Made by a program: the position numbers and the translations under genes
The notes under the pieces: model-generated
Told to the model about the DNA's origin: nothing
Databases searched by the model: none
The model's input: the letters and a program-made list of their open reading frames with translations, nothing else
NCBI GenBank assembly: GCA_951406725.2
Contig: OX597823.1
Span: forward strand, 42,284,001-42,348,000
DNA length: 64,000 nucleotides
Reading direction: 5' to 3'
Source of the DNA: Octopus vulgaris
Taxonomy: Eukaryota
In this document: in pieces, positions 1-7,149 of the stretch
Numbering within the stretch: the first letter of the stretch is position 1
Layout of the letters: the number at the start of each line of letters is the position of its first letter

Positions 1-108
1 TTTGCCTAAAAATCATAATTCTGACATTCTCTCTAAAATTCATGTTTGTGAAACTCTGCCTAAGTACACAGTTGCTAAATTCTGCCTAAAATTCACTGTT
101 GTGAAATT

Positions 109-580
109 TGTAGGCAACCTCATTTGAATCCAGTGTTGTCATGTGTTAATGAGAGTCATCTTGAGTTATCTCCCCTGTCACATCGTTAACAACTAGGTGG
201 CGCTTGTTAGATAGATATAAAAAGACGCGCACAGCCAAGTAACATCCTCTGCCCCTCTCCCATGCGGCCTGAAGCTAACTACCTCTTCTACATCTCTGTT
301 CCTGCTATGGGACAACCCTCTGTTGATTTGAATTTTGTTAAATCCTCTATACCATTCGTGGAAGGCAGCAAGACAAAAGCCTTTGCTTATTCAGCTTCCA
401 TTCTGTTCTCTTGAATGATAATATACAAGATGTGTATAAATGCTCTCATCCCGGATCGGAATAAATACTCCATGTGCATGAAGTCTTCATGTTGTTGTTG
501 TTCCTCACTGGATTAATTCCTACGGCTATCGAAGGATGATTGAACATTATATTAAATTAGTGGGCTAAAAGCTCGCTAAA
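109..580 (+). mobile_element. Gypsy-like LTR (5' copy)
   Basis: Starts TGTAG, has TATAAAAA at 216-223 and AATAAA at 460-465, and ends GCTAAA (likely decayed CTACA) one base before a PBS. Confidence 0.7.
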
Positions 581-581
581 A

Positions 582-599
582 TGGTGACCCCGATGTCAG
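582..599 (+). promoter_or_regulatory. tRNA-Trp primer binding site
   Basis: TGGTGACCCCGATGTCAG; the first 12 nt match the canonical tRNA-Trp PBS TGGTGACCCCGACGTGAT used by ASLV and many Gypsy elements. Confidence 0.75.
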
Positions 600-3141
600 A
601 AACTATCCGATGGATAGTTTCCTTAAACAACTACAACTTGTATGAGTTTTCGAAGACTTCATGTACATGAAGTATTTGTTCCGATCTGGGATGAGAGCAT
701 TTTTACACAGCTTGTATATTAACATTGAACAAAACAGAATGGAAGTTGAATAAGAAGAGTCTTTTGTCTTGCCACCTTCCATGAACGGTATAGAAGATTT
801 AACAAAATTCTAATCAATGCAGGGTTGTCCTGTAGCATGAACAGAGATGTAGAAAATGTAGTTAGCTGCAGGCTGTGTGGGAGAGGAGAGGAGGATGTTA
901 CTTGGCTGTGCACGTCTATTTATATCTATCTAACAAGCGCCACCTAGTTGTTAACGATGTGACAGGAGAGATAACTCTAGATGACTCTCATTAAAACATG
1001 ACAACACTGGATTCAAATAAGGTTGCCTACAAATTCTTCCCAAAGTTTGTAGTTGTGAAATTCTGCCTAAAATTCACAGTTGGGAAACTTTCTCTAAATT
1101 TCACAGATATGAATTTATGTCTAAATTTCACAGGAGCGAAATTCTACTTAAATTTCAGTTGTGAATTTTTGCCTGAAATTCACAGCTGTGAGATAAAGCC
1201 TAAAATTTCACAGTTTAACATTTGAGCTTAAGATTTGCAACACTGAAATTCTGCATAAATTTCTCATTCTGAAATTCTACCTAAGTTTCACAGGTGTAAA
1301 TTTCTGCCTGAATCTCAGTCATGAAATTCTGCTTAGTTGCGAGATTCTACATACAAACGTTATTTGTTAAGAAAGAAGTTAATGATGAAAAAGAAGGCAA
1401 AGAAAAATAACAAAACAGTAGATCTACAGATATGGCCAAATACTTACTGCTGACCTGGCACAACTAAATAAGCTTGCCATGTTGACTACCTGTAGGACAT
1501 ATTGTATAAAAGGAGAAGGCAGAAACTAGGTTAAAACGTGTTTCTATTCCATCTTATGTGTGGAGTGGGTTGAGATCTTTAGTCTCTGGATTGACAAAAC
1601 ATTTTACAAAATGGTTATTAATCTCCTCAAATTTTCTCCCACCCCTTACTTCAAGCCACTTCACCTTCTTAAACATGTCAACAGCTCCCTTCTTTCAGAA
1701 TCCAGGACTTCCACTCTGATACACATAAAACAAGATAGCTATTCGCTTCTTCCTTTTTTGACTCCACTTCTTCATTATTGTCATCCCCCTGTTCATTATC
1801 CTTTTCTTCTTCCTCCTCATTATAATCCTCTACCTACTCTTCCCTTTTTCATCTTCCTTCTCCAACCTCAGTGATCGTTAACAATTCTAGCTGGTCTAAA
1901 TTTTTGTCCTCAGAGAGAGAGTAAGAGAGCATTCCTTCTTTTGACTTGGCTGTGCCATCTGATGTTTCTCATTACTCTCAGATGACTTTATTCTCTCAGA
2001 AGTGTTGCAGAAGGAGGAATGTTGTGTTATGAACTTCCTAGAATTTTTACATTTGTTCTTATTTTCTTTTTATCCTTTTTTATGAAATATGTTTTTTTAA
2101 AGTGATAGAGCTCAGTGTTGGGAGAACTTTAGTTTCTGCTTTGGATCACATAGTTTTAACTGGCATAATTACTAAGATTAAAAACAAGTTACTTGTTGAC
2201 ACATACAGACTTTTCAATTATGTTAATATGAATTAGAACAGAAGAAAAATTGGAGCATTTTTCATCCTTTGACTATTACCTATATATGTATTGATAGATA
2301 GACAGACAGACAGACAAACAAACAAACAGATAGACAGATAGATGGGCACACACATATATATTATACACATGTATATCCATGTATGTTCATGAGGTTGGTA
2401 GATAGAGAGACACACGTATATATATTCACATATGTATATCTATGTAATTTCATTTATATTAACACACACACACATAGATAGATAAACAGACAGACAGATA
2501 GATATATAGATAGATAGACACACACAATCAAATACATATACCTATGCAAATCTATATATTTATACATAATCTTAGACATATGCACACACATACACAAACA
2601 CATATACACACATGAATGCAACACACATACATACCTCACCACATTAATGTATATTTTATGTGCACTGAAAACATATACTCACTTCAGATGCAGCTGTTAT
2701 AGACAAACATATTTTGGCAACACAGGTGATAAATCCAAAAGTTTCTTTGTGTTTTGCCTTATGCGACAAATAGCAGACTTGTACAGTCATGAACTATTTC
2801 TTTGATTACACGAATGGAATTACTATTTTAAGTTAAGATAATGTAGTGTTAATTGATACAGAGACAATGTATTGCAACTGTCATTGTATTCTGATATGAC
2901 CAATGACTTCAAAGTTAAGAGAAAATAATGATAATGTTAAGGAGATAGGAAACGTTATGAATTCTACAGCTATGTGGTTTAAGAAGTGTACTTCACAACG
3001 TTCTGGCTTTGGGTTCAGTCCCACTATGTGGTATCCTCGGCATGTGTCTTTTTCTTTAGATCCAAGCCAGCCAAAGTCTTATGAGTGCATATGGTAAATA
3101 GAAAAGGAAAGATGATTGTTATAGGTATATGTGTATGTATA

Positions 3142-6427: not shown

Positions 6428-7072
6428 TTGTTTATTATATTATTAGTACATTATATTATTAGTAGATGGTGATGGAAGTGTAAAGGTTTTGTTGCTGCAT
6501 GGTTAGGAAGCTTGCATCCCAACTATGTGATCTTGGGTTCAATCCCACTTTGGAACCTCAGGCAAGTGTCTTTTACTACAGCTTGAAGCTGACCCAATCC
6601 TATGAGAAGTGGATTGTGAGGGGCATGTTACAGAAAGAGGCCTTGTTTATTATATTATTAGTACATTATATTATTAGTAGATGGTGATGGAAGTGTAAAG
6701 GTTTTGTTGCTGCATGGTTAGGAAGCTTGCATCCCAGTTATGCGATCGTGGGTTCAGTCCCACTGTAGAACCTCGAGCAAGTGTCTTTTATTACAGCTTG
6801 AAGCTGACCCAATCCTATGAGAAGTGGATTGTGAGGGGCACGTTACAGAAAGAAGCCTTGTTTATTATATTATTAGTACATTATATTATTAGTAGATGGT
6901 GATGGAAGTGTAAAGGTTTTGTTGCTGCATGGTTAGGAAGCTTGCATCCCAATTATGTGATCGTGGGTTCAGTCCCACTGTGGAATCTCAGGCAAGTGTC
7001 TTTTACTGCAGCTTGAAGCTGACCCAATCCTATGAGAAGTGGATTGTGAGGGGCATGTTACAGAAAGAGGCC
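6428..7072. repeat. Three tandem 215-bp units, each containing a decayed SINE head
   Basis: Units start at 6428, 6643 and 6858. Near-identical ORFs lie at 6499, 6714 and 6929. Confidence 0.95.
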
Positions 7073-7149
7073 TGGTTCATTAACCTATTGAATGTTCCAG
7101 ATTTGTATCTTTTTTGTCATTGTTTTCTTGTCCTGGAATTCTTTCACAC

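Follow-up and report, generated by a model that had tools for sequence, protein, structure and literature searches.

A two-U3 Gypsy insertion in an octopus satellite that probably arose by mis-primed reverse transcription

TRIMs carry direct LTRs with a PBS and a PPT and are able to retrotranspose. CsRn1-like Gypsy elements such as CsRn1, PwRn1, and AgCR are described with a tRNA-Trp PBS, a 4-bp TSD, LTR ends of the form TGT...AAA or TGT...ATA, and a Gag motif CX2HX9CX3C; in that description "inverted" refers to the 3-bp LTR termini only (PMC2582038). DIRS elements are retroelements with inverted long repeats (PMC3950715). They use a tyrosine recombinase. Inverted ends together with a TGTNR start and a 4-bp TSD are reported for Ginger1 and Ginger2/Tdd; in the relevant passages of that paper the path from an LTR element to a DNA transposon is called unclear, and two independent LTR insertions of opposite orientation are suggested (PMC2836005). 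Concerning the intermediates of reverse transcription, plus-strand strong-stop DNA of Ty3 is reported to be re-initiated and displaced and to accumulate in particles as a dead end (PMC5371799). Read-through past m1A58 of the primer tRNA, a plus-strand strong-stop product without completed transfer, is described as leaving plus-strand DNA unable to complete synthesis or to integrate (PMC8599865). Ty1 integrase is reported to be capable of inserting DNA of non-Ty origin and of making a normal TSD in doing so (PMC2939329).

In the window, the whole 64,000-nt stretch of Octopus vulgaris DNA analysed here, an element of 923 bp with the termini 5' TGTAGG and 3' CCTACA lies within a satellite. Its features are as follows (window positions).

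3..108, plus strand: host 27-bp degenerate satellite, left flank
105..108, no strand: left TSD AATT; a 4-bp TSD is the norm on solo LTRs of the parent family
109..580, plus strand: complete LTR of a CsRn1-type Gypsy family, TGT...AAA, with about 12 bp gone at 489
582..599, plus strand: tRNA-Trp PBS, 15 of 18 nt antisense to the tRNA-Trp of the genome
599..621, plus strand: 10-bp leader hairpin, a normal feature of the parent (copies L002-L006, L018, and L024)
626..630, no strand: junction microhomology AACAA, common to the parent leader and the LTR minus strand near 405
626..1031, minus strand: inverted copy of LTR positions 1-405 with the exact U3 end, 90.4% identical to the parent copy L031
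1032..1035, no strand: right TSD AATT, matching the left one
1036..1332, plus strand: host 27-bp degenerate satellite, right flank, in phase after removal of the element

Alignment of the inverted arms 109-488 and 652-1031, originally predicted as 380 bp, ungapped, and ~89% identical, gave 339 of 380 identical positions (89.2%) and no gaps. The aligned part of the right arm was thus confirmed, but its limit was not: the arm runs from 626, an extension that had been masked by the loss, in comparison with other copies, of about 12 bp from the left arm at 489. Relative to the parent family, 109-630 comprises the LTR, the PBS, and some 50 nt of the leader; LTR positions 405 to 1, reversed, make up 626-1031. 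TATAAA at 216, AATAAA at 460, the LTR end at 580, the PBS at 582, and the hairpin at 599-621 were all found as predicted. Beyond its first 12 nt the PBS tracks the genomic leader sequence of the parent, and the window LTR is 88% identical to the 5' LTR and leader of L031, a natural parent copy. With L031 as reference the junction overlap is AACAA; in other parent copies a pure A-run occupies this place, so that the overlap is put at 2-5 bp. The window copy contains neither a PPT nor a coding region. Its TG...CA termini, which had also been predicted, are due to both ends being U3 ends; as a trait of the LTR they did not hold, the parent LTR ending in AAA and not in CA.

AATT was seen on both sides of the element, and deleting the element with one AATT restored the satellite spacing of 27 bp (GAAATT to GAAATT), again as predicted. 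As AATT is self-complementary, it cannot by itself tell a TSD from an inverted flank at the window; the two were separated by nine sister elements with nonpalindromic TSDs, described below. The predicted insertion of two LTR 5' (U3) ends as one unit with a 4-bp TSD is supported. The RNA fold of the element has a z-score of -48.8, a stability that results from the palindrome and has no bearing on function. No RNA run was among those listed as covering the element, and the role as an endo-siRNA source or ADAR substrate suggested in the original prediction is unsupported.

Contigs assembled from public runs were found across the inversion junction. X1 covers 551-669 and X5, from organism B, covers 553-676; three contigs from three studies of organism E (X12, X15, and X19) cover 511-718 with 20 differences. 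All of these cover the inversion junction and none the whole element, and X1 may be the source of the assembly. Since the junction is bridged in contigs of several organisms, the structure is real; an assembly artefact was ruled out by the bridging contigs from other studies and species labels. The insertion likely predates the split of the bridging organisms. No empty pre-insertion site was seen in related species, all covered species labels appearing to carry the insertion.

When the centre of the element was searched against the genome it comes from (2.8 Gb, 227 contigs), 75 matches were obtained from 40 scored candidates, among which the window alone spanned the junction. The other matches were LTRs of about 484 bp, TGTAGGCAAC...GCTAAA. 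Most of these matches are solo LTRs flanked by 4-bp TSDs; behind others come the PBS and hairpin known from the window, with gag next, so that the ordinary direct-LTR Gypsy parents sought in the original prediction are present. One natural copy of 4,549 bp has direct LTRs 95.7% identical and matches to DUF7041, RVT_1, and Integrase_H2C2. The CHCC motif CX2HX9CX3C of Gag was found in two of the five natural copies scanned (L031 and L035). With its tRNA-Trp PBS, 4-bp TSD, TGT...AAA termini, and CHCC Gag signature the parent resembles CsRn1, PwRn1, and AgCR as far as these are characterized in PMC2582038, and by these traits it is classified as an ordinary CsRn1-type Gypsy element, its RT being known here as a Pfam RVT_1 match. 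The PBS and hairpin of the window are ordinary leader features of this parent. The window copy departs from the CsRn1 clade in its inverted U3 ends and in lacking PPT and coding region. Like TRIMs and solo LTRs it is short, noncoding, LTR-derived, and TSD-flanked, but in place of the direct LTRs with PBS and PPT of a TRIM it has inverted U3 ends and no PPT. Unlike in DIRS elements, the LTRs of the parent are direct, an integrase zinc-binding domain is present, and the insertion has a TSD.

The leader hairpin is kept across the copies listed above, with a compensatory change in L006 and L018 and, often, CCGG at the loop; it is possibly a dimerisation or packaging signal. Three solo LTRs (L057, L008, and L074) are internally deleted or rearranged (74, 242, and 132 bp) with both ends and a perfect TSD kept. 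Some "solo LTRs" may therefore have been inserted directly and not formed by recombination.

A census of the parent family was made by three pattern searches for the U3 end together with fetched loci, yielding 108 motif sites. Twelve sites were left out (chance matches, another family, an internal repeat), and the other 96 represent 83 insertion loci. At 7 of the 83 loci (~8%) a U3 end was present on both sides, the chance expectation for convergent pairs within 2 kb being ~0.002 in this family.

Window: 923 bp, TSD AATT (palindromic)
L040: 121 bp, TSD CTCC
L070: 268 bp, TSD CATT
L097: 190 bp, TSD GGAT
L100: 279 bp, TSD ATAT (palindromic), flanks inverted over 6 bp
L109: 143 bp, TSD AAAG
L032: 615 bp, no TSD

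No U5-U5 convergent pair occurred among 85 U5-end matches of the parent family. Nor did the motif census of this family, in which diverged ends could be missed, contain a convergent pair longer than 923 bp; none therefore encloses the integrase gene, and neither the Ginger integrase ORF that the original prediction proposed to look for between such ends nor an autonomous partner coding for a transposase within these TIRs was found there.

Other tRNA-Trp-primed LTR families were collected by a PBS search. Family E contains at least five convergent pairs among the matches listed (100 of 171 ends), which after merging a segmental duplicate correspond to at least four events of 1,275, 1,570, 287, and 300 bp; the TSD is perfect in all of these. 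One convergent pair (1,060 bp, TSD matching at 3 of 4 positions) was found among 75 ends of family F, and a further LTR family contributed L187 (835 bp, TSD GTTG). Family D yielded no integrase-type pair among the matches listed (100 of 145 ends); its two convergent pairs include inverted flank and were left out as chromosomal duplications. In total, at least 13 two-U3 insertions are present in four tRNA-Trp-primed LTR families. Eleven have perfect direct 4-bp TSDs (nine of them nonpalindromic), one has a 3/4 match, and one has none. Their inner junctions are all different, and none is repeated at an unrelated locus.

Several candidates were excluded from this count. L203 and L204, which might have been an amplified family, proved to be one event and its segmental duplicate (flanks 98.7% identical). 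In L208 and L210/L211 the flanks are inverted too, over 49 bp without a mismatch in L208 (C2:5779820-5783309); these are chromosomal inverted duplications of an LTR end plus flank and serve as negative controls. L115 (=L173/L209), with inverted arms of 69% identity and a truncated left end, was omitted. The noncanonical AAA end of U5 need not be invoked as forcing U3-U3 products, since the L187 family, which ends in TGTTACA, made one too.

A partial fold-back was recognized in five further loci of the parent family (L074, L101, L103, L111, and L054). In L103 (C23:49618240-49620758) and L111 (C24:24308698) the first fold-back occurs at one and the same junction, which lies 15 nt into U3; beyond it L103 switches into pol and continues to a normal 3' LTR with TSD CCCT. 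Fold-backs at the U5/tRNA end, with U5 reversed and U3 not reached, were seen in L178 (1409-1636), L185, and L054. The short arms of other fold-back products measure from ~15 bp to >500 bp, and there is no fixed TIR.

Both arms belong to the same subfamily in all seven two-U3 elements of the parent family. A 9-bp gap in both arms of L040 is a subfamily trait (11 of 46 ends) and not private. L116 has TGTTG at both ends, while 71 of the 73 other ends of its own family have A at that base. At alignment column 39 a G occurs in five of the six terminal arms of the subfamily-C elements L097, L100, and L109 and in no other aligned copy, which suggests one source copy prone to inverted products. The arms of the window differ from the 12 closest copies by 18 and 18 private substitutions, and the distance between them is about that among family copies (mean 88.8% among the 12 closest). 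In an ML tree of 17 sequences they are sisters, weakly (SH-aLRT 74, UFBoot 64); two variants are exclusive to them, and of the 136 pairs 5, counting the arms themselves, reach this level.

Clues to the origin of these products came from their inner ends. Directly before the inverted arm, L174 (=L116) and L187 contain TGG plus 39 and 37 nt of tRNA-Trp antisense sequence, the PBS being only 18 nt. A search with this read-through motif gave 50 matches in the genome, of which 30 were examined: the tRNA-Trp copies are 29-50 nt long, stop at 39 in 7 of 30, and have a base other than T opposite A58 in 9 of 30. A stop at 39 nt lies just 3' of tRNA position 37, a methylated G in tRNA-Trp. Many LTRs among L173-L202 are followed downstream by TGG and 29-50 nt of tRNA-Trp antisense and apparently are integrated read-through strong-stop DNA. 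In L191 the TSD follows directly after the tRNA copy; in L176, L188, and L189 a short U5 end lies between the two. TGG is missing from about 9 of the 50 matches, on contig C6, which are located in arrays of tRNA genes (confirmed for one array); L213 (C6:58384000-58388000) holds four tRNA-Trp(CCA) genes within 2.6 kb.

In L100 the sequence folds back, passes through an internal U3 end into ~12 nt of inverted PPT, and then switches a second time; its template therefore still had the PPT attached. Together, the tRNA and PPT remnants point to intermediates of reverse transcription. The long arms are confined to LTR and leader, those of the window and L032 both ending in the A-tract past the leader hairpin, and the junction overlaps are mostly ~4-11 bp; L203 has a 5-nt gap and no overlap. 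L206 and L207 turn at the same natural LTR stem, with different exit points. In L191 and L101 the TSD lies beside an end that is no att site.

These products resemble the LTR-length plus-strand species described for Ty3 dead-end strong-stop DNA and retroviral tRNA read-through (PMC5371799, PMC8599865), and as in the latter the sister elements hold a tRNA copy extending beyond the 18-nt PBS. In contrast to the dead-end products as presented in those reports, here they were apparently rescued as DNA with two ends that, flanked by a normal TSD, became fixed in the germ line.

We consider it probable (roughly 0.7) that the element is a dead two-U3 Gypsy copy, for which the plus-strand cDNA was likely mis-primed on a plus strand during reverse transcription and the product was then likely inserted by the element's own integrase. 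Plus-strand synthesis would begin at the PPT and copy the LTR and PBS. About 50 nt into the leader the plus strand would leave its template in the A-rich tract past the hairpin, and its 3' end would anneal via AACAA to U5/R of a plus strand, either its own or that of a second strong-stop DNA. Extension back to the U3 end, by RT or a host polymerase, and completion of the other strand would give a short linear DNA whose two U3 ends are ready for integrase. This DNA would have been inserted into the satellite with the normal 4-bp stagger, the arms later diverging by neutral drift. Integrase is indicated by the precision of the ends and by the 4-bp TSD typical of the family, and the lack of U5-U5 pairs is expected if the products begin at the PPT.

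Mis-priming is favoured by the number of independent two-U3 insertions in four families as set against chance pairing in the parent family, and also by the end variant of L116, the common subfamily of the arms, and the sister position of the window arms. Against it count the weakness of this sisterhood, the missing TSD of L032, the palindromic TSDs of the window and L100, the gap instead of an overlap in L203, and that the extrachromosomal intermediate was not observed. L191 and L101 suggest that mis-priming fits them only with relaxed end use or host repair. Two-U3 insertions as a class are likely a real, dead, and recurrent by-product of Gypsy replication.

We considered four alternatives. 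First, integrase could join the U3 ends of two cDNAs at one target, the inner ends then being fused by microhomology-mediated end joining. Such a two-donor event would give the direct 4-bp TSD, the inverted arms, and the microhomology junctions, and it would also cover those loci whose second end is a short U5 piece or absent (L176, L188, L189, and L191). HMS-Beagle, a fly element, is moreover reported to depend on alt-EJ factors for the synthesis of its second strand (bioRxiv 10.1101/2022.09.25.509424). However, full-length donors predict U5-U5 products and kilobase arms, and none were found; the PPT and tRNA remnants would need strong-stop intermediates as donors, which brings this scheme near to mis-priming. 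We therefore regard it as unlikely.

Second, a chromosomal fold-back inversion or inverted duplication could have followed a normal insertion. The palindromic AATT would allow for this, and such events do occur in the same genome (L208). At the window, however, the inverted match extends no further than 4 bp and removal puts the satellite back in phase, and the nonpalindromic direct TSDs of the nine sister elements contradict it, making this origin very improbable. For the same reason, recurrence of the architecture with direct TSDs, the one-off inversion considered in the original prediction was abandoned. The unique junction that would have reduced the element to a single rearrangement was indeed observed; copies with U3 on both sides recur, though, so a single rearrangement is not the explanation.

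Third, the element could be a nonautonomous TIR element, Ginger- or MITE-like, mobilised as DNA via its two U3 ends, which was the reading originally preferred. The TGTAG at both ends of the window agrees with the 5' TGTNR termini of Ginger1, and with the 4-bp TSD it resembles Ginger ends as given in PMC2836005; L206 and L207 are also near-equal in size and structure. These two nevertheless differ in their exit points, and each has its own base at both ends. None of the 13 elements has the CCGG/CCGT-specific TSD of Ginger1, and the window arm of 406 bp exceeds the TIR lengths of Ginger1 (~40-270 bp) and Ginger2 (50-180 bp). Dispersed copies of one internal structure with TSDs of their own, as in MITEs, were not seen: the window junction is single among the 40 scored candidates, and no junction recurs at an unrelated locus among the 13 insertions. 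Divergence of the arms is on a par with that of the family's solo LTRs, and no transposase was found between such ends in the census. The two-U3 elements thus resemble Ginger in end structure and are not Ginger members, having no transposase, target preference, or amplification; mobility of this kind is hardly credible.

Last and least probable, autointegration, which joins an LTR terminus to internal DNA, or the fusion by deletion of two neighbouring opposite insertions, the route proposed for Ginger1 TIRs, can each set LTRs in opposite orientation and could account for L032 with its missing TSD, but the window joins leader to mid-LTR by microhomology and not at an LTR terminus or integrase end, two separate events would not have the one direct TSD that 11 of 13 elements have, and a matching direct TSD with a non-att inner junction is what was observed.

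Returning to mis-priming, the two-U3 insertions show that inverted arms with TGT ends and a common TSD come about frequently, and in one step. The single common TSD shows a one-step route where the Ginger paper proposed two insertions and thus offers a concrete answer to the question raised there, namely how LTR ends become TIRs flanked by one TSD. This could be a repeatable way for retrotransposon ends to become the inverted ends of DNA transposons. It is a tentative and rather doubtful extension that Gypsy reverse transcription routinely yields integrase-competent two-U3 DNA as a one-step LTR-to-TIR route, that later mis-priming past the integrase gene led to a proto-Ginger1, and that hairpin loci act against their own family. 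If true, the product of such mis-priming would be TGT-ended and TIR-bounded, code for integrase, and have a 4-bp TSD, and two-U3 insertions would seed ready-made hairpin loci against their own family. Two-U3 insertions with a TSD were not described among the titles and beginnings of abstracts searched; they may have been reported in older work on retroviruses. LTR finders search for direct repeats and would likely miss the class, and TIR finders would likely mislabel its members as DNA transposons. Two-U3 copies also preserve transient traces of reverse transcription that are otherwise studied in vitro, namely tRNA read-through, an attached PPT, and pausing after the hairpin. Elsewhere in the window, three tandem copies of a 215-bp unit (94% matches) were found at 6428-7082.
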